Positions 1 to 60,212 of a DNA stretch of 60,212 nucleotides are shown in pieces. A program made the translations under genes and the position numbers. The stretch is taken from positions 1 to 60,212 of IMG/VR virus record IMGVR_UViG_3300007513_000041; one strand, 5' to 3'. A model generated the notes under the pieces. It was not told where the DNA came from. It did not search any database and saw only the letters and a list, made by a program, of their open reading frames with translations. Source of the stretch: a virus (lineage: Duplodnaviria; Caudoviricetes). Positions within the stretch are counted from its first letter, which is position 1; every line of letters starts with the position of its first letter.

Positions 1-744
1 AGAGGAATAATGGCTGGTGGTACTACTGGTAGTAATGTAAATATAATAGAATATGTTACTATAGCAAGTACAGGTAATGCACAAGACTTTGGTGATCTTA
101 CAGAAGCAAGAAATTCGCCTTGTGGAAATTTGAAATCTTCAACAGGAAGAAATTGTTTTTCAACAGGTAATATATATCCATCAAACCCAAACAGGAGTAA
201 TGTTATTGATTATATCACAGTAGCATCTGCAGGAAACGCTACAGATTTCGGAGATGATATTGATGCTTATGGAAGAACTGGTGGTTGTAATAATGGAACA
301 AGAGGTTGTATAGCAGGAGGTTATGGTTCAGGAGGGAAAGTTAATAATATATCTTATATTACAATGGCAAATACAGGAAACGCTACAGATTTTGGTGATT
401 TAATTGCAGTAACACAATTTATGGGAGGTACTGATAATAGTAGTAGAGGATTATTTGCAGGAGGTTATGATTCAAGTTATGCAAATAGAATTGATTATAT
501 CACTATAGCATCTACAGGTAATGCTGCTGATTTCGGTGATATGACAACATATAGACACCCACCTTATTCTTGTAATGATACAGTAAGATCAATATTTGCA
601 GGTGGTCAAGGAGCTAGTGGTGGTTCAGGTTTACAAAACAGTATTGAGTATGTTACAACAGCAACTTTAGGTAACGGAACAGACTTTGGAGATATGACAG
701 CAAGTAAATACGACAGTGTAGCAGGAGTGGATAGTTCAACATGA
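1..744 (+). CDS. C-terminal part of a beta-propeller receptor-binding/tail protein (5' truncated; probably continues from 58683..60212)
   Basis: Frame open from base 1 (RGIMAGG); five repeats RGxxAGG...[DE]Y[IV]T[IVMT]A[ST]xGNxxDFGD. Confidence 0.75.
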   Translation, partial: RGIMAGGTTGSNVNIIEYVTIASTGNAQDFGDLTEARNSPCGNLKSSTGRNCFSTGNIYPSNPNRSNVIDYITVASAGNATDFGDDIDAYGRTGGCNNGTRGCIAGGYGSGGKVNNISYITMANTGNATDFGDLIAVTQFMGGTDNSSRGLFAGGYDSSYANRIDYITIASTGNAADFGDMTTYRHPPYSCNDTVRSIFAGGQGASGGSGLQNSIEYVTTATLGNGTDFGDMTASKYDSVAGVDSST

Positions 745-10355: not shown

Positions 10356-10515
10356 TTTAGAAAGACATTTAGAAGAGTATAAGAAATATGAGTTGGAGTT
10401 AAATAAAAATATAGAAGTTGAAAAAGATCCACAACAACTATACTGGTTTAAAAACAGATTGAAATCTGTAACCAACAGAATAAGAGATGTAGAATACGAG
10501 ATAAAAAATGGCTAG
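10348..10515 (+). CDS. Small coiled-coil protein
   Basis: MNDLERHLEEY...; overlaps TerL start. Confidence 0.5.
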   Translation: MNDLERHLEEYKKYELELNKNIEVEKDPQQLYWFKNRLKSVTNRIRDVEYEIKNG

Positions 10516-11890
10516 ACCAAATAAAGAAGTATTGGAAGAAAGGGAAAACTTTCTACAAACAATAGCTGACTGTGCCAACAGTCCTAGTAAATTCAGCGAG
10601 GTGTTCTTAGAACATGACCTATTCCCATATAATAAGAAATATGTGGATTGTCAGGATAGATTCATAGTATATAGGAGTGGAAGACAGGTGGGTAAAACCA
10701 TGTCTACAGCAGTAAAGGCTTGTCATTTTGCGTTCTTTGCACCATTAATGCTTACATCAGTAAAGAATGAATGTGTCATAGTGATAGCAGCACCTACACA
10801 AAATCAGGCTACAATCATGTTTAATAGGATAAGAGACCTAATAACAGATAATGAATTTCTAAATGGGTTTATTGTAAGAAACACACAGACAGAATTATGG
10901 GTTAGATTTTTAGATAATACAGGAGTATCAAAACTAATAGTTAGGGCTACAGGAGAGACGGGTGTCAGTTTGAGAGGTTATTCTCCTCACTGTATAATAG
11001 CAGACGAGTGTTCTTTTATCAAGACAGATATACTTAGGGCTTTCTTACCTTCTGGTTTGGCAACAAAGGCTAGAATATGGTTGACATCTACACCATTTAG
11101 CAAAGCTGGGTATTTCTATGAAGCATGTCAAAACGCAAAACCCAAAAACCCTGAAGGTATGTGGACAGAGTTTCATGTAAAGTCTACGGAAAACCCATTG
11201 GTTAAGGAAGATCCTGCGTTTATAGAGGAAATTAAAAGGCTTACAAAAGAGGAATATATACAGGAGGTTGAGGGAGAATTCCTTGATATTGGTGATGCGT
11301 TAATACCAAACAGTCTTATCATGGAGGCTATGAGTGATAAAAGACCAAAGGGTAGAATGCGATATTATATGGGAGTTGATGTTGCACGAACAGGAAGAGA
11401 CGAAACCGTATATACTATAGTAGGAGTAGATGATGAAAACATCGTTTATCTTGAGGAGGTAGAAGCAGAGTCACAATCTAACGTTGTAGACGTTGCTGGT
11501 AGGATTAAGGAGTTTACACGAAGGTATAATCTGGAAACAATCTATATAGATGAAACAGGATTAGGTGGTGGTTTGGTGGATTTATCAAGAGAACAAGGCT
11601 CTCCTGTGAGAGGTGTTATATTTACCCTACAAGAGAAGGCAGAAATGTATAAAAATCTCAGATTATTATTTGAAAATCATAATATAAAACTCAAACAAAT
11701 AAACAAAATGGTCTATCAGCTCTCGTATTTACGAAGGGAATATACGGAAACAGGTATAATGAAGATAAAATCAGATGAACATGACGACTATCCAGACAGT
11801 TTAGTATTGGCTTGTAAGTCAGTTTATGCTGGGGATGGGTGGTTTGTTCTAAATGTAGGCAAGGGAATAAAGACAGCGATGGGTTTTTAA
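10508..11890 (+). CDS. terL: Terminase large subunit
   Basis: Walker A GRQVGKT, Walker B IIADE, TSTP, nuclease GVDVAR...IDETG...HDDYPDS. Confidence 0.95.
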   Translation: MARPNKEVLEERENFLQTIADCANSPSKFSEVFLEHDLFPYNKKYVDCQDRFIVYRSGRQVGKTMSTAVKACHFAFFAPLMLTSVKNECVIVIAAPTQNQATIMFNRIRDLITDNEFLNGFIVRNTQTELWVRFLDNTGVSKLIVRATGETGVSLRGYSPHCIIADECSFIKTDILRAFLPSGLATKARIWLTSTPFSKAGYFYEACQNAKPKNPEGMWTEFHVKSTENPLVKEDPAFIEEIKRLTKEEYIQEVEGEFLDIGDALIPNSLIMEAMSDKRPKGRMRYYMGVDVARTGRDETVYTIVGVDDENIVYLEEVEAESQSNVVDVAGRIKEFTRRYNLETIYIDETGLGGGLVDLSREQGSPVRGVIFTLQEKAEMYKNLRLLFENHNIKLKQINKMVYQLSYLRREYTETGIMKIKSDEHDDYPDSLVLACKSVYAGDGWFVLNVGKGIKTAMGF

Positions 11891-18037: not shown

Positions 18038-18100
18038 GAAACAAGATAAATTACCTCTTATATAAATCTATCTTTATAAACATGGAAAACAAATAAAATT

Positions 18101-20027: not shown

Positions 20028-20831
20028 ATGTTTTGTAGAAGACAGACAATAGAGCTGAATAAAAAAGATGACATAATAAACCTAGAACCACTAGGAGATA
20101 TACATTTGGGAAACCTCGGTTGTGATATTGATAAGTATGAGAGACGTATTAAACATATAGCAAAATCACAAAACACATACACAATAGGAATGGGAGATTA
20201 TATAGATAATATTTCTGCCTACGCAGGTGGAATTGTAGATAAGCGTTGGAATCCAGAAACTGTGGATAGAAGAATGCTCACAACAGAAGAGCAAACAGAA
20301 AGATTTCTTGAGTCATGGAGACCATTGGTGGATAAAACTATTGGTGGTTTACTTGCAGGTAATCATGAATGGAAAACCATTAACCAGAAGAGATTTATAA
20401 CCGATTTTTGTAAGCCATTAGGGTTGCCATACTTAGGAAGATTAGCATATGTTAGTCTAACATTCACTCATAATAAAAAGGAAATTAGAAACTACCTATT
20501 ACTTGTAATGCATGGGGGATATGCAGGAGCTATGGCAGGTGGAGCAGTAAATAGAATGAAACAATTATGTGGAGACTTTGATTGTGATGTAGCATTAATG
20601 GGTCATAACCATGATACATGGGTGAGACCTATAGTCAGAATGAGTTATGATAGAAAGACAAACCTACCTGTTGAAAAGAAAGTATTACTTGGAAACACTG
20701 GTACATTCCTAAGAGGATATACAAAAGGTGTTGATTCCTATGTTGAGATAAACCCAAGAGAAGCAAAGAGAGTAGGAAATATTACAGTTACATTCGATCC
20801 CTACAACGGAGATATATTTGGACATGATTAG
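20028..20831 (+). CDS. Calcineurin-like metallophosphoesterase
   Basis: GDIH, GDYID, GNHE, HG, GHNH. Confidence 0.9.
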   Translation: MFCRRQTIELNKKDDIINLEPLGDIHLGNLGCDIDKYERRIKHIAKSQNTYTIGMGDYIDNISAYAGGIVDKRWNPETVDRRMLTTEEQTERFLESWRPLVDKTIGGLLAGNHEWKTINQKRFITDFCKPLGLPYLGRLAYVSLTFTHNKKEIRNYLLLVMHGGYAGAMAGGAVNRMKQLCGDFDCDVALMGHNHDTWVRPIVRMSYDRKTNLPVEKKVLLGNTGTFLRGYTKGVDSYVEINPREAKRVGNITVTFDPYNGDIFGHD

Positions 20832-21096
20832 GGGAGCTAATAAACTATTAAGGGCTGAGTCAGAGGAAGAAATTTTGCGTTCAACAGATATAAAACCTGT
20901 AAAACACAACGCTGATTTTGTATTAGATGCATTAAAAGCACATAAAAAAAACGGATTATCTAATTGGGAAATTGCAATAATCACTGGTCTGAGATCAAGG
21001 CGTGTAAGAGAAGAGGTTCAAAGATTAAGACAGAAGGGTATGATAAAAGAAGATACATGTAGATGTAAAAGAACTCCAATATATTTTATCTTATAA
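20818..21096 (+). CDS. Winged-HTH DNA-binding protein
   Basis: GLSNWEIAIITGL..RRVREEVQRLRQKGMI. Confidence 0.75.
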   Translation: MDMIRGANKLLRAESEEEILRSTDIKPVKHNADFVLDALKAHKKNGLSNWEIAIITGLRSRRVREEVQRLRQKGMIKEDTCRCKRTPIYFIL

Positions 21097-21373: not shown

Positions 21374-21694
21374 ATGAATATATCTTCTTATACAAAAACA
21401 ATATCTGTGAGTAATGAAGCGAAACCAATCCTTCAAGAATTAGATAGAGTGAGACCAAACAATATATCATTCAGTGCAATGCTCGCAATAGCAGCCAAGG
21501 AATATGTAAACAATCACAAGACAGATGTTTTAAACCTAACAAACTTTATGGATTCATCACCTACTTTCTTTTCTGATGTTGAGAGTTGGAAAAAATATAT
21601 TGAAAAAAGTCCAACTTCAGAATTAAAGAAGATACAGAATAGGCATTTACAGATAGGTAATATAATAAGAAAAAGAGTTAATGAATTACTATGA
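21374..21694 (+). CDS. RHH-domain protein coupled to MCM
   Basis: TKTISVS...ISFSAMLAIAAKEYV; overlaps MCM start. Confidence 0.55.
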   Translation: MNISSYTKTISVSNEAKPILQELDRVRPNNISFSAMLAIAAKEYVNNHKTDVLNLTNFMDSSPTFFSDVESWKKYIEKSPTSELKKIQNRHLQIGNIIRKRVNELL

Positions 21695-23664
21695 AGACTT
21701 TGACAGAATCTGCATATAGGGATAAAATAGTTGAAGCATTATCGTCTAAAAGGTGGACAAGAGTAATTGATGCACTAAGACCTAACGGTGTGTTTACCTT
21801 AAATGGTATGGAGAAACCTTTTGCAGAATTAATATTAGAGAACAAGGATAAATTCATTGATGTATTAAGACAGGCTGTCTATGAAGTATTAAAAGATAGA
21901 CATCCTGAAGTTGATATAGAATCAACATTCAATGGTTTAAAGATAAGATTAACTGTAGATGAGTCAACCCCAATGCATAAATTAAATGCTAGGGAACATG
22001 AAAATTGTGTAGTGTCTTTTGATTGTGAGATCATAGGTATGGCTAAAGTAATGTCATATATAAAAGAATGTAGTTTAGGATGTCCTAGATGTTTTATGGA
22101 GATATCAGTGAAAGCAGATATGGATAAGAAGATACCAATAAAAGTATGCTCAAACCCACAATGTAAAAAAACAAAATTAGAAGTGATAAGGGATAGTATT
22201 AAAACAGATAACGTTCAGGCTATAACGTTACAAGAACCATTGGCTTCTTCAAGAAATCAAACACCTATAATTTTAAGAGGAAAAATAGATGGTAATCTTA
22301 TAGGTGATGTTTTCATAGGTCAGAGGAAAAGAATAACTGGTGTTTATAGATCTGAACTTGATTTGAAAAAAGATGAGAATGAAATATTAATTGAAATTAC
22401 AAACGCAGATAATCTAGATATATCAGACAGTGTTGTTATGTCAAAAGAAGACTTGGAAAAAATAAAAAAAGATTCTATTAATGATGGTTTTATAGACAAG
22501 ATTGTAGGCAGTTATGCACCTCATATCTATGGCATGAATGATGTAAAACTTGCATGTCTATTACAATTAGCTGGTGGTAGTGAAGGTGTTAAGAGACCTA
22601 ATATAAACATCCTATTAGTAGGAGATCCAAGTATGGCAAAGTCAGAGATATTAAAATCACAAAACACATACTCGCATCGTTCAATGTATACATCTGGTAA
22701 AGGTTCTTCAGGTGTGGGTCTTACATTAGGATTGGCAAAGAGAGATGGTGAGTTTGAATTGTCAGCAGGTGGTTTTGTAATATGTGATGGTGGAATAATA
22801 TGTGTAGACGAGTTTGAAAAAATGGATTCTTATAATAGAAGTGCTATACATGAGCCATTAGAACAGGGTACATGTAGCATAGCCAAGGCAGGATTCAAAG
22901 CAACATTTCCTGCAAGGACAAGTTGTTTGGCTGCAGCAAACCCAAAGTTTGGTAAGTATGATGAGGATGAAACATTGGTAACAAATATCGATTTACCTCC
23001 ATCATTGTTATCAAGGTTTGATTTCATATGGCTTATTAAGGACAGCGTTAATGAAAAAGAAGACTCAGAAAAGGCTAAACATATTCTTAATACATATCTT
23101 AATGGAAATATAAATGAGAAAAAATACTTAGATCAGAATAGCTTAAAGGGATATCTTAACCATGTAAGAAAAATAAACCCACAGATAACTGTAGATACAC
23201 AGAATAAAATACTCAGTATTTACAAAAACATGAGGGAGGTATCTGCAGAACAGAATAGTGTTGCTGTTGGTACTAGACAGTTAGAGTCAATAATAAGAGC
23301 ATCAACAGCTCATGCAAAACTATGTTTCAGGGATAAGGTTTTACCTGAAGATGTAGAATGTGTTGAGGATTTGATAAGAAAAGAGTATCAATCTTTTGGA
23401 TTTGATTTAACCAATGGTACTTCATCAAACCAAACAACTCTTGTGGGTCTTACAAAAAAAGAGACCAAAGAACAAACAGCTAATAGGGTATGGCATGAAT
23501 CTGCTAATAATAATAAAGTGAAACTTGTTGATTTTGTAAAACTACTTAGTATGGAAACTGGATTCGATGAAGAGCAGGCTATGAAAATATTCTATGCATG
23601 GGAACAACAATGTATAATAAAACTTAATTCAGATAACACATACAGTAAGTCAGGAGGATTCTAA
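21691..23664 (+). CDS. mcm: MCM replicative helicase
   Basis: Zn finger CPRC...CSNPQC; Walker A GDPSMAKS; CVDEFEKM; AAANPKFG; LLSRFD; C-terminal winged helix. Confidence 0.96.
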   Translation: MKTLTESAYRDKIVEALSSKRWTRVIDALRPNGVFTLNGMEKPFAELILENKDKFIDVLRQAVYEVLKDRHPEVDIESTFNGLKIRLTVDESTPMHKLNAREHENCVVSFDCEIIGMAKVMSYIKECSLGCPRCFMEISVKADMDKKIPIKVCSNPQCKKTKLEVIRDSIKTDNVQAITLQEPLASSRNQTPIILRGKIDGNLIGDVFIGQRKRITGVYRSELDLKKDENEILIEITNADNLDISDSVVMSKEDLEKIKKDSINDGFIDKIVGSYAPHIYGMNDVKLACLLQLAGGSEGVKRPNINILLVGDPSMAKSEILKSQNTYSHRSMYTSGKGSSGVGLTLGLAKRDGEFELSAGGFVICDGGIICVDEFEKMDSYNRSAIHEPLEQGTCSIAKAGFKATFPARTSCLAAANPKFGKYDEDETLVTNIDLPPSLLSRFDFIWLIKDSVNEKEDSEKAKHILNTYLNGNINEKKYLDQNSLKGYLNHVRKINPQITVDTQNKILSIYKNMREVSAEQNSVAVGTRQLESIIRASTAHAKLCFRDKVLPEDVECVEDLIRKEYQSFGFDLTNGTSSNQTTLVGLTKKETKEQTANRVWHESANNNKVKLVDFVKLLSMETGFDEEQAMKIFYAWEQQCIIKLNSDNTYSKSGGF

Positions 23665-23680: not shown

Positions 23681-24685
23681 ATGGTAGAAGAAACTAAGGA
23701 AGACGTGCAAATACAAACAGAACCAGACATTGATTATTCAATTCAACAGTTAGATGGTGTCGGTGCTGTAACACAGAAAAAATTAGAATCGTTTGGTGTA
23801 ACATCAATATTTGATATATGTATAAGAGGATCAAAAGAAGTATCAGAGATAACAGGAGTAACAAAATCAAAGTCAGACAGTTGGGTGTTTCAATGTCAGA
23901 AAATACTTGAAGATAACAAACTGATTAGAGCTACAGATATGAACACTGTAGAACTTATGGATTATCAAGATAATTATCCACTACTAAGTACAAAATGTGA
24001 CGAAATAGACAACCTAATAGGTGGTGGAGTAAAGCCTGAATGTACATATGAAATATATGGTGCTTTCGGATCTGGTAAAACACAATTCAGTAATTCATTA
24101 ACAGTTGAGGCAATTCGAGCTGAAAAAAATGTAATTTGGGTAGATTGTGAAGATACATTTCGACCTAAAAGAATAGTGGAGATAATGATGGCTAAGGGAT
24201 ATATTGAAGATAAGGAAGAAGCCAAAGAATATTTGGATAGAATAACATACTATTATTGTCCTAACACAGAGCAACTGATGGGTACTGTTAATAGTATTTC
24301 TAAGATTTTACAGGAAAAGAAACCAAGGCTGGTTATCTTTGATGGTGCTATAGGTCAATTTAGGGAAGAATACCTAGGCAGGGGAACTTTGGCTGAAAGG
24401 CAAAACCAGATAGCACGACTAATGACTCATTTGAAGAACATTTCATTTTATTTCTATTGTACAGTCCTATTTACGAACCAAGTTCAGTCAGATCCAGCAG
24501 TTATGTTCGGAGACCCAATAAAACCAATAGGTGGCAATATTGTAGGTCATGCGTCAACATATAGAATATACTTTAAGAAATCTGGTAAAAAAAGAATAGC
24601 AAGGATGGTAGATAGTCCAGAACACCCACAGCAAGATGCAGAATTCATTTTAAATGCAAAGGGTATTGACAGTCCTGAAAAATGA
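23681..24685 (+). CDS. radA: Archaeal RadA recombinase
   Basis: HhH LDGVG; GAFGSGKTQ; DCEDTFRP; YLGRGTLAERQ; KPIGGNIVGHAST; RIARMVDSP. Confidence 0.97.
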   Translation: MVEETKEDVQIQTEPDIDYSIQQLDGVGAVTQKKLESFGVTSIFDICIRGSKEVSEITGVTKSKSDSWVFQCQKILEDNKLIRATDMNTVELMDYQDNYPLLSTKCDEIDNLIGGGVKPECTYEIYGAFGSGKTQFSNSLTVEAIRAEKNVIWVDCEDTFRPKRIVEIMMAKGYIEDKEEAKEYLDRITYYYCPNTEQLMGTVNSISKILQEKKPRLVIFDGAIGQFREEYLGRGTLAERQNQIARLMTHLKNISFYFYCTVLFTNQVQSDPAVMFGDPIKPIGGNIVGHASTYRIYFKKSGKKRIARMVDSPEHPQQDAEFILNAKGIDSPEK

Positions 24686-26935: not shown

Positions 26936-27286
26936 TTGGTACAATTAAGAGTGGTTGATAACTACTGTATAAATATAAGTTGTCATGTTCCCTTAACAGA
27001 ATATGAATTGACTAGACAAAAAAAGTCTAGAAAATATAGATTCTGTAGAAAATGTAGAATGCTTAGATATACAAGTTCTGTTAGTTGGAAGTGTATAGGG
27101 TGTGGAAAAACTATAGATCATGGATCTTATGTAGGACAATATTATTGTAATATTCGTGGTTGCTTTTCTTTTAATGGTGGAAAAAGTTATAGGGGAAAAC
27201 AGTTAAATAAAAAGAACAGTCGTATTCGTGCTAGGGTTAAGGCTTTCGTAAGGAAACACCCTATAAAGAAATACAAAGAAATCTAG
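26936..27286 (+). CDS. Cys-rich basic Zn-finger protein
   Basis: Several CxxC-type pairs, basic tail. Confidence 0.5.
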   Translation: MVQLRVVDNYCINISCHVPLTEYELTRQKKSRKYRFCRKCRMLRYTSSVSWKCIGCGKTIDHGSYVGQYYCNIRGCFSFNGGKSYRGKQLNKKNSRIRARVKAFVRKHPIKKYKEI

Positions 27287-27342
27287 TTGCAGACTTGCGC
27301 GCGTGTATGCGTATGCGTAATGGAGCTTTAAAAAAAAGAGAG

Positions 27343-31230: not shown

Positions 31231-33141
31231 TTAATGCATAACCTCCTGAACAATCTTTCTGAACTCCTTAATAACAAACTTGCTTGCACCATTCATACCT
31301 GTAAATGATACATATCTCTTACCAAATATATCTTTCAACACCTCTCCATATTTCCAATGGTTTGATATGTCTATACATATTATACGAGGAGATATCCTTA
31401 GTGCTTTCTTCAACGCTTTCTTATTCATCTTAATGAGAACGCCTGTTGGTGTGTCTATGTTGTTCTTATAGTATTGTGGTACGCCATCTGTGATCATGAT
31501 TAATAGTTTCTTCCTGCCTTTCCTACCACGTAATTGTTTTGCACTATGAATTAATGCTTCGTGTGTAGGTGTGAACATATAACTATCATGAGTGTTTATC
31601 TTAGAACACTCTTTCAGATTATTGAATGTTGTTATACCTACGTTGCCCTCATAATCAGAAGACCAAACATTTCCTAGTAAGTCAATGTTCTGTACTTTTT
31701 CTGACGCTTTATATAATGTTGCAACTAAGTTGCGAGCGTCAGTCATACGACCACTATTACCCATAGATCCTGATCCGTCTATTGATATGAGAACAGTAGC
31801 ACCTGAGCTTAACTTCTCATTGATCATGCATGGATCATTAGACTGTCTTACCTTTCTGTTAATGAACGCTTCAATATTAACCTCATTCCCATAGTCGTCT
31901 ACGTTTGAAGTGAATTGTTCTGCAAGTTTAGTGAATGTCTTTTGTAGTATACGCGCTGTCTTAGTATCAACATTAACCTTACTCTCATTTCTGCCCACAT
32001 TTTTGATATGTGATGGTGTCATTGATCCCATTTTATTCATGGCTTCTATACTTGCTTTCATATGTTCAACCTCTTCTTTACCGTCTGCCTTATTGAAACC
32101 TACCTCAGTCTTATGTTCCTCTTCTGATTGTGATTCCATTTCTTTAGTTGATTCTAGTATCTCTTCTTGCTCTTCATCAAACACTTCACGTTGTTCCTGA
32201 GTCATATGATTTCTATGTTCGTTTACCATACCACCATGATCATGTGAGTATTTAGTGTTGTTGCTATTCCTCATGCTATTTGTTATCTTAGATTTCTTAT
32301 TGAAAACTTCTTGTTGCTGTTTCTTTAAAGAATCCTTTGCACTCTCAGCATTAGTCGCTTCTGATTCACTAGTTGTAGTTCGTAGTGTTTCTTGCGCAGT
32401 GTTAATACCTTTCTGTAGCTCACGTAGTTTTTCATTCTCATTTTTATAGTCGCGAAGCTTATCTTTTATGTATTCATCAATGTGTTTCTTAGCTCTAACC
32501 AAACATGTTAGCGCACCTCTTGTGCCTGTTTCCTTAACGTCTTCCATGATTTCATTAGCCCAATCTTCACTAAGACTAGGTTGAAAGAATCTAGAAGCCA
32601 ACATTTTATCTGTTGGTGTTAAGGTATACTTAGGATCAGTTGCTCTCATACGCTCGGTGTCTGATAGTAATCGTTTACCTAGATTGGTACGAGTTTCCTC
32701 AAACATCTTTTCTGTTCCTAACCACACATGTTTAGTTAATGATTCAATCCTTTGATCTTCAATGATATTGAATGCTAACATGTACTCGGACATTATTGAT
32801 TTCTTAATACTTGCAAGCCTGTCTGCACTTGCTTCATTAGCAAGTTCTTTATTGCCAGCGACTAAATCATTAGCCCAAGCAGTAGTTAAACCTTTGACAT
32901 TGGGTGCGAAACTATCCCACATTAAGTGAGATAGCTCGTGATATAATGCTGCCTTTCTATTGATTCCTTTCTCATTAGGTGTGCATATATTTATAATGTA
33001 TGTGTTGGCTTTATCAGCAGGTGTCACGTAATTGTTTGTGCCTCTTTGATACGTTAGATCTATTGATAGACCTTTGATATCTTCTATAATGTTTGCACGT
33101 TTCTTAAAGTATTCTTGATGTGTTAGATATTCTGTTTTCAT
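31231..33141 (-). CDS. vWA-domain protein with N-terminal HExxH (CobT-like MoxR partner)
   Basis: YHELSH, FNIIEDQRIE, MIDAS DGSGS, TPT, ITDG. Confidence 0.88.
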   Translation of the reverse strand: MKTEYLTHQEYFKKRANIIEDIKGLSIDLTYQRGTNNYVTPADKANTYIINICTPNEKGINRKAALYHELSHLMWDSFAPNVKGLTTAWANDLVAGNKELANEASADRLASIKKSIMSEYMLAFNIIEDQRIESLTKHVWLGTEKMFEETRTNLGKRLLSDTERMRATDPKYTLTPTDKMLASRFFQPSLSEDWANEIMEDVKETGTRGALTCLVRAKKHIDEYIKDKLRDYKNENEKLRELQKGINTAQETLRTTTSESEATNAESAKDSLKKQQQEVFNKKSKITNSMRNSNNTKYSHDHGGMVNEHRNHMTQEQREVFDEEQEEILESTKEMESQSEEEHKTEVGFNKADGKEEVEHMKASIEAMNKMGSMTPSHIKNVGRNESKVNVDTKTARILQKTFTKLAEQFTSNVDDYGNEVNIEAFINRKVRQSNDPCMINEKLSSGATVLISIDGSGSMGNSGRMTDARNLVATLYKASEKVQNIDLLGNVWSSDYEGNVGITTFNNLKECSKINTHDSYMFTPTHEALIHSAKQLRGRKGRKKLLIMITDGVPQYYKNNIDTPTGVLIKMNKKALKKALRISPRIICIDISNHWKYGEVLKDIFGKRYVSFTGMNGASKFVIKEFRKIVQEVMH

Positions 33142-33546: not shown

Positions 33547-33836
33547 GCCCGTGCCTCCTCATCATCATAGATAAGTAATGCACGTTCGAACTCGCCCTCA
33601 TACTTATCGTTGATAATGTATTGAAACTCATACTTCACATCAACTATGTGTCGTGTCAATATGTTTGTACCGTTGATAATAAATTTCTTTCTTAATCCGT
33701 TGGGATCAAACAATGGTACAAGACTAATGAACTCATTGATCTGTTCGTCAATAGGTATAGTGTTCTTGATTGTAGGTGGTTTACTCTCTTCCCTAAGTTT
33801 AGGGAAGAAGAGTTTAACCTTACGAACGCTGGTCAT
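33543..33836 (-). CDS. Hypothetical protein
   Basis: Coupled ORF. Confidence 0.5.
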   Translation of the reverse strand: MTSVRKVKLFFPKLREESKPPTIKNTIPIDEQINEFISLVPLFDPNGLRKKFIINGTNILTRHIVDVKYEFQYIINDKYEGEFERALLIYDDEEARA

Positions 33837-35008
33837 AACGTGATACCAAATGTATCTGCTATGGAATTCTTTATGAACTCACGTTCAGTTGCGTCTCCAT
33901 ACTTAACAAGTAAGCATGTTTTAATACACTTCCTCTTGAGCTGATCTCCATCTAGTCCGTCTTTCAACCATACTCTATACATGTCTGTGAACTGTACTAT
34001 ATCTCTAGGAGATAATACATACTCGACATCTCCTTTCACTCTAGAACTGTGTGTGTCCTGAACTACCTGAAGTAATGGAGCTGATACGTCATCAGGAATA
34101 TCCTCCCAATTAATTATCTTGTCCAAGTCTTTACTTGATGGGTAATCCCATACTGCACCAACATATCTAGACCTCAAGTCTTCTGTCAACTGATTCACAC
34201 CTGCATAATAACTAGGATTCATTGATGATATAACAATCAACTTACAATCATCATCTAATTTGAATTGTTTGTTGTTTGCTACTACCATATGTCTGTCGTC
34301 TAATACAGGGTTAAGTATCTTCTGCATTTCAGGCTCAAGTGCGTTAACTTCATCTAAGTATAGGCATGCTTTCTTATACTTGTTGGCACATAGTATTGCT
34401 CTTGGCAATACACCTAGATCAAAGTACGATCCGTTCTCATCTACTTGTGATCTACCTAAGAGATCTCCCTCTCTTGTACCACTAGAACAAGCATGAAATA
34501 CTAAGTGAGTCTGCGTATCATAAGACACATCATAAACACACAACGTCTTACCTAATCCTTTATCTCCCTCAATGAGATAAGGATATGGTATGTCCATTGT
34601 GAATTGTTTAAGTAGGTCTTGTCTTTCGTCATCTATCTCAATATAATTACCCCATTTATAAGGCTTGTATTGATCGAAGTCTACGACACCGAACTTTGTT
34701 GTATGATTACCTGTCTGATTAGGCTTAGATTGTTTGACTTCCTCTACTACCTGTTGAGTTTCCTGTACCTGTTGCTTAGGGTTAAGGATCTCTTCAATAG
34801 ACATAGCTGATTCTACTGTTGCTACTTCAGGTGTAGGCTCTCCCATGTGTAAGCCCTTAATATATTCTAAGAACTCAGGCGATCTTACTAACTCAGTATA
34901 ATGTTGCGCTCTGTCTTCAGCTACACTCTTACGTGTGAAATTATCGCGCGCTATCTCCCTTGCTTTCAATGTCAATTCGTATCTTAACTCTTCATCTGTT
35001 TGTGTCAT
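33833..35008 (-). CDS. MoxR/CobS-like AAA+ ATPase
   Basis: GDKGLGKT, LYLDEVN, SSMNP, DLRSRY, SPR. Confidence 0.9.
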   Translation of the reverse strand: MTQTDEELRYELTLKAREIARDNFTRKSVAEDRAQHYTELVRSPEFLEYIKGLHMGEPTPEVATVESAMSIEEILNPKQQVQETQQVVEEVKQSKPNQTGNHTTKFGVVDFDQYKPYKWGNYIEIDDERQDLLKQFTMDIPYPYLIEGDKGLGKTLCVYDVSYDTQTHLVFHACSSGTREGDLLGRSQVDENGSYFDLGVLPRAILCANKYKKACLYLDEVNALEPEMQKILNPVLDDRHMVVANNKQFKLDDDCKLIVISSMNPSYYAGVNQLTEDLRSRYVGAVWDYPSSKDLDKIINWEDIPDDVSAPLLQVVQDTHSSRVKGDVEYVLSPRDIVQFTDMYRVWLKDGLDGDQLKRKCIKTCLLVKYGDATEREFIKNSIADTFGITL

Positions 35009-35786: not shown

Positions 35787-36323
35787 TCATGTTGATACCC
35801 TCGTATCATTGTATAGGCTTTCGAAAGACTCTCTCATTACAGGAGAATCCTTTGAAACTACTGATACCTTTGTATCATTGTGGGAACTAGGTGCGCCTAC
35901 ACGCCTAAACATAGCCACACCTAGTTTTACCAGCTCGTCTTTATCTATGTGCAATAGTTTAATTCGTTGCTTGAATCCAAAGCGCAACTGATTATGTTCC
36001 ATGTATTGATTAAAGCCCTCGACAAGTCTGTTTGTCTTATCAAGCTCTTCCTCAAATACATATGCAATTAGACCTTGTTGTCTATGTTTATCGCTGTTTT
36101 CAATAAACTCAGACACCTTTCTAATCACATATTGTAGGCGCTTCAGTTGGCGTTGTTCTCTATTGCTTTCACTCATAGATATGAGATCAGGAATACCCAT
36201 GAGTTTACAGGCAGTTGCTCTTGCCTTTTCATACTCATGTGTACTTACACGTCTGTCTATGCATGATATTACATCAGACATAGGTGTAGACGTTCGTCTT
36301 CCTGTTTTCTTTAAGTTAGTCAT
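35787..36323 (-). CDS. Hypothetical early protein
   Basis: 178-aa ORF. Confidence 0.55.
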   Translation of the reverse strand: MTNLKKTGRRTSTPMSDVISCIDRRVSTHEYEKARATACKLMGIPDLISMSESNREQRQLKRLQYVIRKVSEFIENSDKHRQQGLIAYVFEEELDKTNRLVEGFNQYMEHNQLRFGFKQRIKLLHIDKDELVKLGVAMFRRVGAPSSHNDTKVSVVSKDSPVMRESFESLYNDTRVST

Positions 36324-36678
36324 TAGCTATACCACTCCAATATATTAACTTCATAAACGGATTGACACCGTTGTCATTAATGAACTTCCCATTATCATTA
36401 GGCTTTACAATATTGCGTAGGTTATTTAATCGTTCCTTTTCCATAGCTATTCTTTTCTTTTCAGGTATCACGTTATTAAGCACACGCTGGGTGTTTCGTT
36501 CCTTATCCATATCTTGTACAGCTACGACTCCATGAATATGCATACGCTCCCTATCATCTACAGTGTAGGGTGTGTTAACTCTCTTACCATTTACCAAGTG
36601 GCACGTTTTCTTCACGCGATCAATAAAAGGCGACCTATATGAATTGGTGTTTATACTACAATCATCTGCAGTCATCAA
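36316..36678 (-). CDS. Hypothetical early protein
   Basis: ORF overlapping the next gene. Confidence 0.5.
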   Translation of the reverse strand: MMTADDCSINTNSYRSPFIDRVKKTCHLVNGKRVNTPYTVDDRERMHIHGVVAVQDMDKERNTQRVLNNVIPEKKRIAMEKERLNNLRNIVKPNDNGKFINDNGVNPFMKLIYWSGIAND

Positions 36679-36799
36679 AATCTAAAGGTTGCCAGCTTGC
36701 ATAAAAAGGTATTGTTTTGTGCCTGACTTGTGCCTAGCATTTTTCAAACAGTCGTCTAACACTGTATACATACATTAATCACAACAACAGTAGAAGCAG

Positions 36800-37450
36800 T
36801 AGTATGCGTAAGCATTAGGCGTAAGCCCTACATATCGTTATACTTATTGTTATATAATATATGTATTTGATTAATAGATTACACTACCATACAGTATAAT
36901 AATACGCGTACGCGTATGTATAATAATAAATATAAATACATATCTTTATGCGTAATTAGGCACGAAGTTTCAACCTGCATACGTTACGCGCGTAATATAT
37001 AATATAATATAATATATAATATAATATAATAATAACATAGTATAATACTAATATAATAATAGTGTACATATACGCGTAAGGCACAAATATTTCCTGTACC
37101 CATAGCCCTCACATGCGCATCTGCCCTTACACGTACGCGTACTGTACGCGTAATAGGATACATTATTTTTAACTTCAGACAACTCGCCTGCTGCGTTGTC
37201 TAGGCGTAATGAGCAGCAACTCCCTTCGCTAATTACACGGGCATCTCGTTTCTTTACACATATTTCAGGCTCTCCATACGCGCGCGTACCCTAAGAGATA
37301 TAATTTCCATGCCTATTTACTCATGAATTGTTATACCCTAATACGCGTATGTGTATGCGTAATAATATATATAATAATAATATAATATAATAATATAATA
37401 TAATAATATAATATATAATATAAATAAATAATAATAATAATACATAGTGT
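36800..37450. repeat. AT-only tracts interleaved with TACGCGTA-type palindromes (candidate origin or terminus element)
   Basis: G/C-free run ~37360-37442; near G/C-free run ~36993-37060; ATACGCGTACGCGTAT palindrome 36902-36917; further (T)ACGCG motifs. Confidence 0.6.
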
Positions 37451-37681
37451 ACAAATTACCTTAGTAGTGTACGGATTTAACCTAAGCCTAGGGTTAATGA
37501 CTGATTTTGACACTAACCCTAGGTTAAGTAAGTATGCTATGTTCGTATCTCATAGGCTCACACATTACTTACGCTCAGTCAAAACCGAAGACCAATGGCT
37601 TGTTTCTCCTTTTCCTTGACCCGAACGAATTTTTAACGGTGGATAATGAATCCACTTACGGAAATACGTTAACTATAAAGA

Positions 37682-37783
37682 GTGGAACGAATGGGATTTG
37701 AACCCATAACAGCCAGCAATTAACACTGTTTAGACGCAGTTAATTTACGCCTCACTATGATACCAAGTTTCACCATCTTCCAC
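37682..37783 (-). ncRNA. tRNA-like element with non-canonical anticodon region
   Basis: Stem GTGGAAGA/TC(G)TTCCAC; D-arm GTGA-AACTTGGTA-TCAT; T-arm ATGGG-TTCAAAT-CCCAT; TATA box upstream. Confidence 0.7.
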
Positions 37784-37811
37784 ACGCTTAGTTATTAGCT
37801 AAGTATAATAT

Positions 37812-37949
37812 GTTATTATATAATATATTGCGCATATGCTCATGGTTTCTCTGTCCCAAAACGGGATGAACTGGGATGAATGTTCTCCAATACAACCAAA
37901 GGGATTTACCCCTAAGCGCTCTATTAAGATGACGATATTATATAATAAC
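37812..37949. promoter_or_regulatory. Divergent TATA promoters forming a 15-bp inverted repeat
   Basis: GTTATTATATAATAT (37812-37826) and ATATTATATAATAAC (37935-37949). Confidence 0.55.
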
Positions 37950-38281
37950 TGTAATACTAGGAATTACAACCTAGGGACAATTACTGCTCAAAGGCAAACC
38001 TAGGGACAACTTTTACGACCTAGCGTCTAATAACGTGATGTTTTTTATACACCCTATATCGTATTTTGATAGATATTTAGAACAAACTTGTTGCCTAAAA
38101 AATCCCAAACTTACTTTATCCATTATGTAGACTATGAAATTATCATATATCATTGAGCGTGTAAACTCAGTGATTTGGCTCGCTGAATATATGATAACTG
38201 TAAGTAGATTATATGATAAGAAAGAAAGGGTCATTACGTGACCAATCGGATATTTTACAAGTAAACTAGGCGTTATTCTGT

Positions 38282-38599
38282 CTAGATTGCAGGTGCTATT
38301 GAAACAATGACCGATTGAGTATCGATCTTTAAGCCTTTAGCCTGCGCATATTCGCGCAATTTCATAAAGCCAGTTTTGTCCTTAGTCCTAAAACCAGACT
38401 GAGGCAAAAGTACGCCTTTTGAAACTAACTCAGCAAGAATGCCTGATGTTTTGGCTTCTACTGCTGGTGCTAGTGCTTCAATAACAGGTGTTTCGATTTC
38501 TGCAGTCACTGAAGAAGCTTCAACCAAATTAAAACCATGAGCCTTAGCCCATGCCTTAACTAGTGCCTTTTCAGTAGCTGACGAGTCTTTACTACCCAT
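38282..38599 (-). CDS. Small putative DNA-binding protein (Lsr2-like helices)
   Basis: LVKAWAKAHG and LREYAQAKG; TTTATATATAA box upstream. Confidence 0.55.
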   Translation of the reverse strand: MGSKDSSATEKALVKAWAKAHGFNLVEASSVTAEIETPVIEALAPAVEAKTSGILAELVSKGVLLPQSGFRTKDKTGFMKLREYAQAKGLKIDTQSVIVSIAPAI

Positions 38600-38770
38600 C
38601 AATAAACATAGGTTGCCTACTTATATATAAACTAGATGTTTTGTGCCTAGATAGGCGTGAAAATCTCCCACTAAGTATAGAATCTCTAATTAACGTACCG
38701 AGTGCTTATATCGAAAATCGTGTTTTTTGTCGTTGCAAGGATACAGATTCGAGCATGAATACGAATCGGA

Positions 38771-39118
38771 TTAGGATCGTGTTTTTTTGCGAGATCGCTT
38801 GAGGTTAACAAACCATCTGCGTATTGTATACTTTCTAATGTAAGAAGCAATAACATACCATGCAGTAATCTGTAACATACCGAACAGTTCACCACTCTCA
38901 ATAACATCTATATATAAAGGGAGGATGGTGTAGTTCATCATCGTGGCAATAATACAACCAATAGCAACGTCAAGTGTAACCTCCAACGCAGAGCGTAGTT
39001 TACTGTCTTTCTTACTATTGCCTCTAAACAGTGAAAGTAGACTCATCAAATTCATTGTAAGTGTAGTTATATAAAGGTTGCGAGGATTATGATTTCTTTT
39101 CTTCGACTCTATCCTCAT
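38771..39118 (-). CDS. Two-TM phage membrane protein (start probably internal)
   Basis: SALEVTLDVAIG...YIRKYTIRRWF. Confidence 0.55.
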   Translation of the reverse strand: MRIESKKRNHNPRNLYITTLTMNLMSLLSLFRGNSKKDSKLRSALEVTLDVAIGCIIATMMNYTILPLYIDVIESGELFGMLQITAWYVIASYIRKYTIRRWFVNLKRSRKKTRS

Positions 39119-40793: not shown

Positions 40794-40849
40794 ACAAAAT
40801 AATAACAAATCCTGACAAAGTTTATAAAGCACTGTAATGTAAGAATGTT

Positions 40850-42802
40850 ATGGGATTTACTGATACAATAAGAGGATTTTTCGGAAAATCTGACGTAATG
40901 AAGGGATATACAGAATCCACATCAAGACCAAGTGTAGCACAACCATATATGAGTACCGATACAGGTGCTAAATTACCAATATTTCCATTCCCACTCATAA
41001 TGATTTATGAGTTAGCAGATAACATTGATGCATTAAGAATACCTATTGAGACTCTAAACAGGGAAATGTTCAAGAATGGATTTGAGATAGTAGAGAGATT
41101 TAAGTATAAATGTGAAAATTGTTCCAAAGAATTTCAATACAAACCAATAGAGGAAAAGGAATTAAAAGCAAGAACTGCAGTCGAAGAGCAAGGCGCAATA
41201 TCGCAGGAAGAACAAATGGAGAGCGACACAACGTCAGAGGCACATGCAGGAGACAAGTTACAATGTGATACATGTGGAAGCAGAAACTTGTTAAGACCAA
41301 TACCAGAACACAGAAAAGTATTAGAAAAATTATTAGATCAACCTATAAACGGAAACAATCAGACTATAGAAGATGTATCAAGAATGCTTGAAAGAGATTT
41401 AGAGATAGCAGACAATGCTTACATGCTACTTTTGAAGAATTATAACTTAGATGATAACACAGGAAATATTAATTGGGATAACACAGAGATAAAAGAATGT
41501 TTGAGAATTGATCCACCACAGGTTGCAATGATTGCAGACAGTGATGGTAGGATAGGTTATGACGATAAAAGAAATAAGGTTTGGGTTTGTCCTAGATTTG
41601 AACATAGAGATAGAAGACTAACAACAGATAGATGTGACAGATGTGGTGCAGAAGCACTTAAAGCAATTTGTGAAGTTAACTCTGTTTATTCTATAGGTAT
41701 ACCACAACCAAAAAGGGTTGTTTACGGTGAAGGTGAAATAATTTGGCGTGCTGGAAAATACAGACCTGCATTAATTTATGGCTACTCACCAATTTATTCA
41801 GTTTGGTCAAAAGCAATGTCTTTGAGCCACATGGATGAATACATTAGAAAGTATTTCGATAAAATGAGACCCCCAAGGGGTATGTTAGTAATTGCTTCAC
41901 GTAATTACGAAACATTCAGAAAATCATGGGATTTATTAGAGCAGAAAGCAACAGAAGACCCTTACATGATACACCCATTACTTGTAGAGAGTGATAAAAC
42001 AGGTAAGAATCTTGCACAATGGCTCGATTTTACAGGATCACTTAAAGAATTAGAGTTTATTGCAGTTAGAAAGGAGTTAAGAATGATTATAGGTGCAATT
42101 TACGGTGTATTGCCTCTCTATTACGGAGAAATGCCTTCTGGATGGTCACAAGAGGGATTACAGGTCACAATAACCAATAGGGCAGTAAAATGGGGTCAAG
42201 AAATACTTTACAAGAGCTTTTTCAAGAAAATAGGCGAAATTTTAGGTGTAAATGATTGGGATTTGAAATTAAAGGAAGGAGAAGAGAATGATAAGTTACA
42301 AGAGCTTCAAACAGACGCTGCAGAACTTGCAAACATGCAACAATTACAAGCTATGGGATTTGAGGTCTCTAGAACTCATACAGGAGACTTTAAGGTGTCA
42401 AAAGACCCTGTTTTTTCAACTAAAGATATGTTAGAGTTACAACTTGGTGGTGGACAGATAGGTGAAGGACAAGAAAAACAAGATCCAGAGAGAACACGAT
42501 TCCAAGGAGAACCTGCAGTACCTAGGTCTTCAGACATTGGTGGAATAGGACAAGGCTCACCTTCAAGTGGAAAAGGAACTTCAATGAGTAAGAAAAACTT
42601 TCCTAGTGGCATAACACCTGTTAATTTTAATGTGGTAAAGAAAACACTGCAAACTGCAGTTGATTTTGGATGGTCAAAGACCAAAACTGTAGATGAGTTA
42701 AGAAAGTTCGGAAGTATGACAGTAAGACAAGCAAGAGAAATAGTTAAAAATGAATTTGAATCAACAAGGAGGTGGGAAGAAAAAGATGGCGAAAAAAAGT
42801 AA
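40850..42802 (+). CDS. Portal protein with Zn-finger insertions
   Basis: DLEIADNAY, YGYSPI, YF..MRPPRGML, IIGAIYGVLP; position before protease and capsid genes. Confidence 0.88.
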   Translation: MGFTDTIRGFFGKSDVMKGYTESTSRPSVAQPYMSTDTGAKLPIFPFPLIMIYELADNIDALRIPIETLNREMFKNGFEIVERFKYKCENCSKEFQYKPIEEKELKARTAVEEQGAISQEEQMESDTTSEAHAGDKLQCDTCGSRNLLRPIPEHRKVLEKLLDQPINGNNQTIEDVSRMLERDLEIADNAYMLLLKNYNLDDNTGNINWDNTEIKECLRIDPPQVAMIADSDGRIGYDDKRNKVWVCPRFEHRDRRLTTDRCDRCGAEALKAICEVNSVYSIGIPQPKRVVYGEGEIIWRAGKYRPALIYGYSPIYSVWSKAMSLSHMDEYIRKYFDKMRPPRGMLVIASRNYETFRKSWDLLEQKATEDPYMIHPLLVESDKTGKNLAQWLDFTGSLKELEFIAVRKELRMIIGAIYGVLPLYYGEMPSGWSQEGLQVTITNRAVKWGQEILYKSFFKKIGEILGVNDWDLKLKEGEENDKLQELQTDAAELANMQQLQAMGFEVSRTHTGDFKVSKDPVFSTKDMLELQLGGGQIGEGQEKQDPERTRFQGEPAVPRSSDIGGIGQGSPSSGKGTSMSKKNFPSGITPVNFNVVKKTLQTAVDFGWSKTKTVDELRKFGSMTVRQAREIVKNEFESTRRWEEKDGEKK

Positions 42803-58682: not shown

Positions 58683-60212
58683 ATGGCAGTATCTTATCTT
58701 TCTGGTGGAAGAATACAAGGAATAAGTAGTGTACCATCTAACACAGGTCAAGATTATGAAAATCAATTTACAACTGACAATGTGACCGTAGGTGCAGGTG
58801 GTCAAAACGATCTTGATTTAACTATAGTTGATGGACATATTCAAGCACATTCAAACTGGGAACAAAAACAGGGAATGAAATGTGAACAAGGATTAAACGG
58901 TAAAGCATTGAAAACTGTAACTGTTAGGTTGAAAAAGGCAGGAACACCAACTGCAACTTTACGCTGTGATGTGATACGAAATAGCAACCCACAAACAACA
59001 CCTGAAGCATACTCAGATACAAAAGATCAAGATGACTTAACAGCAAGTTATCAGGACATAACATTCACATTTTCATCAGCAGTTACACTTGCAACAGATG
59101 ATTATATTGTAATAACCTCATCAGCGACAGGTGGTGCAACAGGTACGAGTACAATAATAGCCCAAACTGATTGCAATCCTGAAAGGTATTATGCAAATAA
59201 TGGTGCAACATCTTGGTCTGGTGGAACTATAGGAACAGGTACAACAGCAAAACAGGCTTGTGTAATGAAACTGCAAGATGCAAGTGGTACGGTTCTTTAT
59301 GATGTAAATGAAAAACAGGTTCATTGGAACGCTGATACACACCCAAGCAGTAATCAACAATGTTATTGGGATCTTGGAACAACATTAGATGATGATAAAT
59401 GGGTTTGTAGATTCACAATAATGGCTACCCATGTGGATCTGGGTGTAACAGCAGTTGGGGAATTTATTAAAATAGGAATGGTATCTTCAACTGGTGCTGC
59501 ATGGAATACAAATCAAGAATGGGCTTGTCTAAACGTATGGACTGGAGAGTATGGTTCAAATAAAACATTATGGGGAAGTGCAATACAAGAGGGTGCAGGT
59601 TCAGCAGGTTATGCTTCACCAACTGTAAGAGATGGTGGTGGTGGTGATAACGCTTTTGGTGAAAACTTTACACAAGGTTCGCTTATAGCACATAAACCAT
59701 TTTATATAGAAATTTCAAAAGATGATGATATGATTTATGTAAAACGATATACTGATAGTACATATAATACAGTTGAAGAAACCTGTACTCCTAGTGCAGG
59801 AACAGCAAATTTAGGAGATTTTAGATATTTTGCATTTAATACATTTACAAACAGTTATGACAATAGAGTTGGACAAATATCAGGAATTGTTGATGATGTA
59901 AGAGTTTGGGACGGTGTGTCTAGCGTAACAGCAGGAGAAAAAGCAGCAATAACAAATGTACCAATACAATCTACGTTTGAAGAAACAGATACCAATAAAT
60001 TCTATACTAAATTATATACATACGCTGATGGTTTAACATGGGTAGAACAAGGAAATGCTGGATACCTTACTGAAGCAGATGCAGGAGGTGGAGCTAGAGG
60101 AATATTCTGTGGAGGATATACAAGCACACATCTCAATGTCATGGAATATATTACAATATCAACTACTGGTGATGTAACAGATTTCGGAGATTTATCAGGT
60201 AATAGAACAGGT
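58683..60212 (+). CDS. Modular receptor-binding protein, N-terminal part (runs off the window end)
   Basis: 510 codons open to the end: MAVSYLSGGRIQG...TNVPIQSTFEETDT...first propeller blade ...DFGDLSGNRTG. Confidence 0.75.
   Translation, partial: MAVSYLSGGRIQGISSVPSNTGQDYENQFTTDNVTVGAGGQNDLDLTIVDGHIQAHSNWEQKQGMKCEQGLNGKALKTVTVRLKKAGTPTATLRCDVIRNSNPQTTPEAYSDTKDQDDLTASYQDITFTFSSAVTLATDDYIVITSSATGGATGTSTIIAQTDCNPERYYANNGATSWSGGTIGTGTTAKQACVMKLQDASGTVLYDVNEKQVHWNADTHPSSNQQCYWDLGTTLDDDKWVCRFTIMATHVDLGVTAVGEFIKIGMVSSTGAAWNTNQEWACLNVWTGEYGSNKTLWGSAIQEGAGSAGYASPTVRDGGGGDNAFGENFTQGSLIAHKPFYIEISKDDDMIYVKRYTDSTYNTVEETCTPSAGTANLGDFRYFAFNTFTNSYDNRVGQISGIVDDVRVWDGVSSVTAGEKAAITNVPIQSTFEETDTNKFYTKLYTYADGLTWVEQGNAGYLTEADAGGGARGIFCGGYTSTHLNVMEYITISTTGDVTDFGDLSGNRTG

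Follow-up and report, generated by a model that had tools for sequence, protein, structure and literature searches.

A conserved array of CpG palindromes and A+T tracts as a candidate replication origin of an MCM-encoding archaeal tailed virus

Where does a tailed virus of archaea that encodes its own MCM helicase begin the replication of its DNA, when none of its genes is recognised as an Orc1/Cdc6 initiator? The question is raised by a non-coding region at positions 36679-37473 of the virus record IMGVR_UViG_3300007513_000041 in IMG/VR, which was analysed in full (60212 nt, classed as linear, CheckV completeness 96%) and is called the window below. To our knowledge, it is not known how MCM-encoding archaeal viruses choose the start of replication. 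No mapped origin for such a virus was found in the literature searched, with supplements outside the scope of the search, and the parts consulted of PMC2194725, PMC10544981 and bioRxiv 10.1101/2025.08.23.671958 contain no mapped viral origin. A preliminary description, made from the sequence of the window, had pointed to strictly alternating, CG-rich tracts beside A+T-only tracts in this region, and had suggested either a supercoiling-responsive origin, with CG tracts prone to Z-DNA or cruciforms and A+T tracts that melt as an unwinding element for the MCM, or a packaging or terminus signal. In the present analysis the region is read tentatively as a viral replication origin, possibly combined with control of the adjacent operon; on the features of the sequence and its relatives, this could quite well be so.

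The virus is a marine archaeal tailed virus. Genes for an MCM helicase (21691-23664), RadA (23681-24685), a T4-type large terminase (10508-11890), a portal protein (40850-42802) and a tail tube protein were identified with Pfam, and nucleases are also encoded, beside MCM and RadA. No match to Orc1/Cdc6, integrase, ParA/ParB, ParM or DNA polymerase families was obtained with Pfam in the 86 open reading frames (ORFs) scanned, in agreement with the earlier remark that a viral MCM is present without a recognised Orc1/Cdc6. The closest named viruses, judged by TerL and MCM, were archaeal tailed viruses with 25-33% identity.

The repeated motif and the A+T tracts

According to a greedy gene map, 36679-38012 is the sole long non-coding gap in a tightly packed genome. 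It is located within a 13-kb block of minus-strand genes, between two operons of the same direction, and 36679-37473 contains no ORF longer than 60 aa. The right part of the gap (37474-38262, 789 nt) is an insertion missing from the closest relative, and was therefore not taken as part of the conserved element. Repeat arrays, long A+T tracts or anything comparable are missing from the strand-switch regions at 25.4-27.3 kb and 40.55-40.85 kb, and a blastn search of 36300-38300 against a phage collection gave no match. The genome has a strong synonymous A+T bias, with a G+C fraction of 0.08-0.25 at four-fold degenerate sites versus 0.35 overall.

The alternating runs of the preliminary description were recovered exactly at 36902-36922 (21 nt), 37062-37078 (17 nt), 37275-37289 (15 nt) and 37341-37361 (21 nt), and a fifth strict purine-pyrimidine run was found at 37128-37142 (15 nt). 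The region thus holds 5 of the window's 12 alternating runs of at least 12 nt; the longest one, of 24 nt, lies elsewhere (27296-27319). The 16-bp palindrome described earlier at the first tract is perfect (36902-36917) and is built from two overlapping copies of TACGCGTA. The tracts are also CG-rich in a CG-poor genome, as had been noted, the observed/expected ratio of CpG being 2.11 in 36780-37460 (34 CpG) and 0.45 in the genome (851 CpG).

The alternating tracts consist of copies of one short palindromic sequence. All six sites of the 8-bp palindrome TACGCGTA in the 60 kb searched fall within 36903-37349, and the degenerate form TAYGCGTA has 17 matches on both strands, compared with a mean of 1.04 in 100 dinucleotide-preserving shuffles (maximum 4; none of the 100 reached 17). 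The TACGC core is 65 times denser in the region than in the rest of the genome. If TATGCGTAA and TAGGCGTAA are counted as variants, together with the expanded palindromes (36984-36995 and 37277-37288), 13 copies of the core are present on one strand within about 560 nt. The opposite strand carries 8 copies, every one of which lies within a palindrome, and the non-palindromic copies all have the same orientation; the array is therefore directional, and it runs in the direction of the downstream operon. Only 8-10 bp are shared between copies, the flanks being different. The alternation is a by-product of this repeated motif.

Outside the region, the full motif occurs only at a site near 27.3 kb, as two tandem copies, and in one in-gene copy. 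The 27.3-kb site marks the far end of the same leftward operon, 9.6 kb from the region, and is conserved in the relative L006 (10733-10756).

The second component of the region is A+T-only DNA. The tract of about 80 nt reported earlier extends over 83 nt without any G or C (37360-37442, tract A) and is the longest A+T-only tract of the genome; three of the five A+T-only tracts of at least 20 nt in the window are in the region. By nearest-neighbour energy, tract A is the least stable of all 60- and 100-bp windows (-47.0 kcal/mol, compared with a mean of -74.2 and a standard deviation of 4.2 kcal/mol) and tract B (36993-37060) the second least stable at both sizes (-50.1 kcal/mol), about 6.5 and 5.7 standard deviations off the mean, respectively. 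They are also the two highest-scoring tandem arrays of the window (TRF scores 110 and 93). Both tracts have a motif copy at the left and the word TAGTGTACA at the right, and this shared order makes the region a twofold repeat with units about 370 nt apart. The features are given below from right to left (positions in the window; strand in parentheses where one applies).

36679-37473: conserved non-coding region, which carries all elements except the distal site and aligns with relatives
37360-37442: A+T tract A, 83 nt A+T-only, tandem array of period 13 with 6 copies (37360-37439); proposed main unwinding element
37342-37362 (+): two motif copies, TACGCGTA at 37342 and TATGCGTAA at 37354, abutting A+T tract A
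37277-37295: 12-bp palindrome TACGCGCGCGTA (itself 37277-37288) inside the 18-nt invariant block
37201-37209 (+): non-palindromic copy TAGGCGTAA in the variable spacer, not conserved in relatives
37134-37152: two TACGCGTA copies 11 nt apart, retained only in the closest relative, with three copies
37060-37079: TAGTGTACA followed by TACGCGTAA, right of A+T tract B; TAGTGTACA again at 37446-37454, after tract A
36993-37060: A+T tract B, A+T-only at 36993-37035 (43 nt), tandem array of period 16 with 4 copies (36993-37058); proposed second unwinding element
36984-36995: 12-bp palindrome TTACGCGCGTAA, abutting A+T tract B; a CG-palindromic copy is retained here in relatives
36947-36965 (+): composite element, TATGCGTAA followed by AGGCACGA, conserved in 10/10 aligned sequences
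36902-36917: 16-bp perfect palindrome; motif copies are retained in the aligned tract of 9/9 relatives
36844-36879: most conserved block, about 36 nt, with no motif copy (37 columns with at least 90% agreement in 10 sequences)
36803-36824 (+): two non-palindromic copies, TATGCGTAA and TAGGCGTAA, in a block conserved in relatives
36700-36735 (-): promoter of the leftward operon, with a TATA-like box (36700-36709) and two AGGCACAA words (36717-36724 and 36728-36735)
27296-27319 (+): distal site in the 56-nt spacer that separates two convergent genes; its 24-nt alternating tract includes two tandem TATGCGTA copies

Conservation of the region in related viruses

Related sequences were collected in two ways. 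Protein-anchored scans of IMG/VR yielded six close-relative contigs (L005/L006, L007, L008, L009, L010 and L011), and metagenome contigs scanned with the 18-nt conserved block yielded 16 loci, 11 of which were homologous to the window by blastn. The loci L031, L034, L039, L043 and L044, with no blastn homology to the window, were discarded as chance matches to the block. The elements were mapped in 14 sequences including the window, and their order was the same in all of them wherever each position was reached: a TGTACAC word, A+T tract A, tandem motif copies, a composite of GTGCCT and the motif, the invariant CG palindrome and an unalignable spacer of about 100-200 nt, followed by a second TGTACAC word, A+T tract B, more motif copies, the motif-free 36-nt block, two further copies and the promoter. 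Absence from close relatives had been named in the preliminary description as grounds for rejecting its proposal; the architecture is present in all 14 sequences.

For the alignment, 10 sequences spanning most of the region were used; the partial L008, L011, L029 and L035, the rearranged L010, and L006/L033 (same strain as L041) were omitted. Blocks with at least 90% agreement comprised 236 of the 1015 alignment columns, and those containing TGTACAC are conserved beside both A+T tracts. In the flanking genes, the window and the L009-type relatives are identical at only 0.47-0.52 of third codon positions and match at 17/31, 20/31, 20/27 and 50/91 four-fold sites. Blocks kept at 90% or more while third positions are identical at about 50% indicate that the motif-bearing blocks are under purifying selection. 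The window and four protein-found relatives, those in which the block is reached in the standard arrangement, have the 18-nt block in identical form; L010, which is rearranged, does not have it. Where the block itself served as search pattern, its identity in the loci found is given by construction. A+T tract A was found at the same place in 13/13 related sequences, and tract B in those relatives that reach the position. What varies is the A+T-only length (26-82 nt at tract A in the related sequences, 26-83 nt with the window included), the number of hexamer-spaced motif copies (1-3) and the spacer between the blocks, which is indel-rich.

The alternating character of the tracts was kept less well than the motif. 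At 36902-36922, the longest alternating run was at most 9 nt in 9/9 relatives, the motif copies still being present, and at 37128-37142 it was at most 4 nt in 8/9 relatives. Alternation was retained at the other three tracts, over 12-20 nt beside tract A (9/9 relatives), 12-13 nt at the invariant palindrome and 11-17 nt beside tract B. At 37342-37362, one to three tandem, hexamer-spaced copies were kept in 9/9 relatives.

An assembly artefact had been raised as a possible explanation. Four sequencing runs of one study (labelled as marine metagenome, and possibly the source) contained 0.99-1.00 of the 31-mers sampled from 35800-38800, and the same architecture was found in relatives' contigs of several further metagenome assemblies. 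To judge by assembled sequences and sampled 31-mers, the region does not appear to be an artefact of assembly. None of the 20 sequencing runs listed was an RNA run containing the stretch.

Two rearrangements were seen. In L010 (4980-5056), the motif block beside A+T tract A lies in inverted orientation, joined to another flank. In the window (37296-37330), and also in its closest relative, a 20-nt element containing GTGCCT (the second composite copy, near the invariant block) has the opposite orientation to that in the other relatives.

The origin reading and its alternatives

The proposed mechanism is as follows. The approximately 13 copies of TAYGCGTAA, with the palindromic core TACGCGTA, would be recognised by a dimeric initiator or origin-binding protein with sequence specificity. 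They bracket two A+T-only microsatellites in repeated units of motif, A+T tract and TAGTGTACA. Once bound to the motif arrays, this protein would put stress on the A+T tracts, the DNA of the genome that is easiest to open, and the opened tracts would serve as the entry site for the virus-encoded MCM helicase. Binding of a protein to the motif, opening of the tracts, entry of MCM and initiation within the region are all inferred. The origin reading is based on the directional palindromic array, the pair of unstable A+T tracts, the position in the only sizeable non-coding stretch, the evidence of selection, and the absence of the motif from other promoters; because the motif is not spread over other promoters, the array was not taken as a regulon. 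The scarcity of promoter boxes points the same way: no TTTATAWA box, the promoter consensus of this virus, lies within 36679-38012. The gene content, an MCM helicase in the absence of any Orc1/Cdc6 match among the 86 ORFs, also fits an origin. The earlier suggestion of an origin was thus retained as to the architecture and the easily unwound A+T DNA beside the motif, and is not supported as to Z-DNA and cruciforms.

In a more specific and rather doubtful version, the origin would be self-contained and free of Orc1/Cdc6, the CpG palindromes being read by the viral MCM itself or by an adjacent ORFan, with the twin A+T microsatellites as helicase entry sites and CpG methylation (CGCG or ACGCGT) as a possible switch. 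If true, no origin of an MCM-encoding archaeal virus would have been defined by sequence before this one, and a new family of initiators would be indicated. In any case, the region offers a concrete candidate: it is conserved, compact (about 800 bp), equipped with defined motifs and open to tests in vitro though the host is uncultured, and the search for an initiator is narrowed to a few small neighbouring proteins.

The region was compared with three kinds of known origin. It resembles archaeal oriC with origin recognition box (ORB) or mini-ORB repeats, as in Pyrococcus abyssi, in being intergenic and several hundred bp long, with many short repeats, an A+T-rich stretch and an MCM helicase; an A+T-rich duplex unwinding element is present, and about 13 recognition-repeat copies flank both A+T tracts. 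It differs from oriC in that orc1/cdc6 is neither adjacent nor elsewhere in the genome (0/86 ORFs), that the motif is a CpG palindrome of 8-10 bp, and that there are two unwinding tracts, both of them true microsatellites. Iteron origins (lambda ori, P1 oriR and R6K) have classical iterons, about 17-22 bp long, within the initiator gene or next to it. Shared with them are the multiple same-orientation repeats beside an A+T-rich region (13 here, at least 3 being the criterion) and a copy number that varies among relatives, whereas the core of 8-10 bp is half the length of an iteron and no initiator is recognisable. In the simian virus 40 (SV40) core origin and herpes simplex virus (HSV) oriS, short palindromic protein sites flank an A+T tract that melts first. 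Palindromic sites around an A+T tract are found here too, and the virus likewise supplies its own replicative helicase; the helicases, however, belong to other families, and sequence recognition by the archaeal viral MCM itself is only hypothetical. The region thus matches the general design of an origin but lacks defining features of archaeal oriC, iteron origins and the origins of helicase-encoding eukaryotic viruses; it is a candidate for an origin of the repeat-plus-unwinding-element kind.

Several observations weigh against an origin. No replication-linked skew was visible: window-wide GC and AT skew tracks the coding strand only, and the skew at four-fold sites by position was flat and noisy, which is uninformative because G+C at these sites is so low. 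More distant relatives (L012-L016, L025 and L026) lack a comparable region or motif, and the element is therefore clade-specific. The MCM gene is about 13 kb away, no recognisable initiator adjoins the region, and the two genes directly downstream are clade-restricted ORFans with no family or usable fold. Classical iterons and archaeal ORB elements are longer than the motif core of 8-10 bp. With G+C near 0.1 at synonymous sites, a long stretch of A+T-only DNA in unconstrained sequence is less surprising than it would seem from the genome average. Finally, the region is directly upstream of an operon promoter, so that much of the same evidence is also compatible with regulation as its sole role.

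Such a role is the main rival, and the two roles are not exclusive. As a region of transcription control alone, the motif copies would be operators at which a viral or host regulator switches the leftward operon, and the A+T tracts spacer, bendable DNA or a sink for TATA-binding protein; this is unlikely, though to be taken seriously. It accords with the position directly upstream of a conserved TATA-like box, with the word AGGCACRA upstream of two promoters and beside two motif copies, with short palindromes, which are typical of dimeric regulators, and with the distal copy at the other end of the same operon (27296-27319). However, about 13 sites in 560 nt together with 150 nt of A+T microsatellite far exceed the needs of known operators in a tightly packed genome, no other promoter of the genome bears the motif, and the region itself is free of TTTATAWA boxes. 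Improbable, to a greater degree, is a centromere-like or genome-organising site, in which the short repeats would be bound cooperatively by a partition or bridging protein and the 27.3-kb site would be a dispersed partner. The arrays of one orientation with a distal copy 9.6 kb off do recall the centromeres of plasmids and prophages, but no ParA, ParM, ParB or integrase family was matched in the 86 ORFs and there is no sign of maintenance as a plasmid. If the region held one or two genes for non-coding RNA, or long leaders, and the conserved blocks functioned as RNA, this would fit the alternation of conserved blocks with variable spacers and the twofold unit structure; against this, the spacer between the blocks is rich in indels and unalignable, no promoter box lies within the region, folding is no better than that of shuffles, and Rfam has no family in the motif region apart from one sub-threshold match to a microRNA family (23.2 bits versus a gathering score of 78), which was taken as chance. 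An RNA function is accordingly very improbable.

The supercoil-driven structural switch, in which the signal would be the structure itself, Z-DNA formed by the tracts or cruciforms extruded by the palindromes, was weighed on energetic grounds as well. A crude two-state estimate was made for a 5-kb domain, with parameters from the literature on stress-induced duplex destabilisation (SIDD) and Z-DNA, and its values are indicative only. The five alternating runs of 15-21 nt with CG steps are above the criterion of about 12 bp for a Z-DNA-forming element, and strict alternation over 15-24 nt with CG steps is a property shared with known Z-DNA-forming tracts. Without competition, each flip would be slightly favourable at a superhelical density of -0.06. 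At that density, however, melting of the 83-bp tract yields about -22 kcal/mol versus about -6 for any alternating tract, so that the A+T tract would melt first and the flip would then be unfavourable; at -0.03 nothing opens. Unlike in Z-DNA-forming tracts, TA steps interrupt the alternation, pure CG runs do not exceed 8 bp, and the adjacent A+T tract is a much easier sink for stress. As single strands, the A+T tracts and palindromes form hairpins no better than those of shuffled sequences, 54-179 of 200 shuffles folding as well. Relatives keep the motif while alternation is lost at 2/5 tracts, including the 21-nt run with the 16-bp palindrome. Z-DNA or a cruciform as the operative feature is therefore not supported; its chance is very small. 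Equally small is the chance that the region has no function and consists of slippage-prone microsatellites and a hitch-hiking repeat in unconstrained DNA: the hexamer-repeat copy number and the A+T-tract length do differ among relatives and synonymous sites are about 90% A+T, but in 10 sequences the CpG-rich blocks still agree at 90% or more, versus about 50% identity at third positions, and CpG is 4.7-fold above the genome level. The other half of the earlier suggestion, a packaging (pac/cos) signal or genome terminus, did not hold up either and is likewise remote. Hexamer-spaced repeats around a central tract resemble some pac sites, and several relatives' contigs end inside the region. The large terminase gene, however, is about 25 kb away, and the window and six relatives read straight through. 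The ends of the relatives' contigs scatter at different points within the A+T repeats, and in one metagenome two broken contigs overlap in these repeats and are bridged by a third (L041); scattered and overlapping ends are what a break of the assembly at low-complexity DNA produces. The two ends of the window, moreover, map to the same place in a relative.

The adjacent operon and other observations

The leftward operon extends from 36678 down to 27343. The TATA-like box of its promoter is conserved and is located about 30 nt before the ATG at 36675, and the AGGCACAA word that accompanies it recurs upstream of another TATA box, that of the gene with its start at 38602. The consensus TTTATAWA is found about 30 nt before start codons elsewhere in the virus (e.g., 18059-18080, 38624-38631 and 40821-40828), a distance that implies leaderless or short-leader mRNAs. 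The word AGGCACRA has 9 matches versus 2.9 expected, 5 of them within 36717-38648; at 36717-36735, 36958-36965, 37079-37086 and 38641-38648 it is located upstream of the TATA boxes of two operons or beside two motif copies. It is probably the site of a separate regulator.

The two genes next to the region (36316-36678 and 35787-36323) had no family in Pfam or PHROGs. AlphaFold2 models of their products reached a mean pLDDT of only 49.3 and 53.6, respectively, too poor for a fold search, and an Atlas search for the proteins of the adjacent genes gave no usable match. A profile search with the 120-aa protein retrieved 18 proteins, all at least 49% identical and without a name or Pfam family; that with the 178-aa protein retrieved 7 matches, and none of the 6 scanned against Pfam was above a family cut-off. 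Further along the operon, an AAA_5 ATPase (33833-35008, minus strand) matches a PHROG annotated as porphyrin biosynthesis, CobS-like (E 4e-21), and a large protein downstream (31231-33141, minus strand) has a weak, sub-threshold VWA match (17.7 bits versus a cut-off of 23.8). By these matches, the two make up a CobS/CobT-like pair, within the operon that has its promoter in the region. At the far end, a 116-aa protein (26936-27286, plus strand) with several Cys pairs ends 10 nt before the distal site. It had no family match; by eye it is Zn-ribbon-like, and it is a candidate DNA-binding protein. A small HTH-like protein is encoded at 20818-21096.

A scan of genome contigs with the MCM, in which candidates were chosen by shared peptides, gave only MCMs of metagenome-assembled genomes of Hadarchaeota and Undinarchaeota (31-39% identity), which do not amount to a host call. 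A marine ammonia-oxidising archaeon as the host is only a guess.

The ends of the window (1-744 and 58683-60212) lie in ORFs that would join in frame, and both map to one 0.9-kb stretch of the relative G001, with internally repeated matches. Because they map to one such stretch, they are not physical termini, and the record probably has no true genome ends but is a permuted form, with its break in a repeat-rich, tail-fibre-like gene. The contigs L007, L008, L010 and L011, from different assemblies, start within about 220 nt of each other in the portal gene (window 41947-42171) and end in the A+T repeats; the common starts suggest a second recurrent assembly break or a recombination boundary. 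The A+T microsatellites break short-read assemblies of this virus group.

Within the insertion lies a tRNA-like sequence (37683-37781, minus strand), whose acceptor stem and T arm are good and whose anticodon region has about 27 additional bases. It scored 23.2 bits with the Rfam tRNA model versus a gathering score of 29 (E 0.11), was not called by ARAGORN, and folds with a 7-nt loop, AAUUAAC, that lacks the usual U33. The insertion also holds a 73-aa ORF (38013-38234) and AACCTAGGG repeats of its own.

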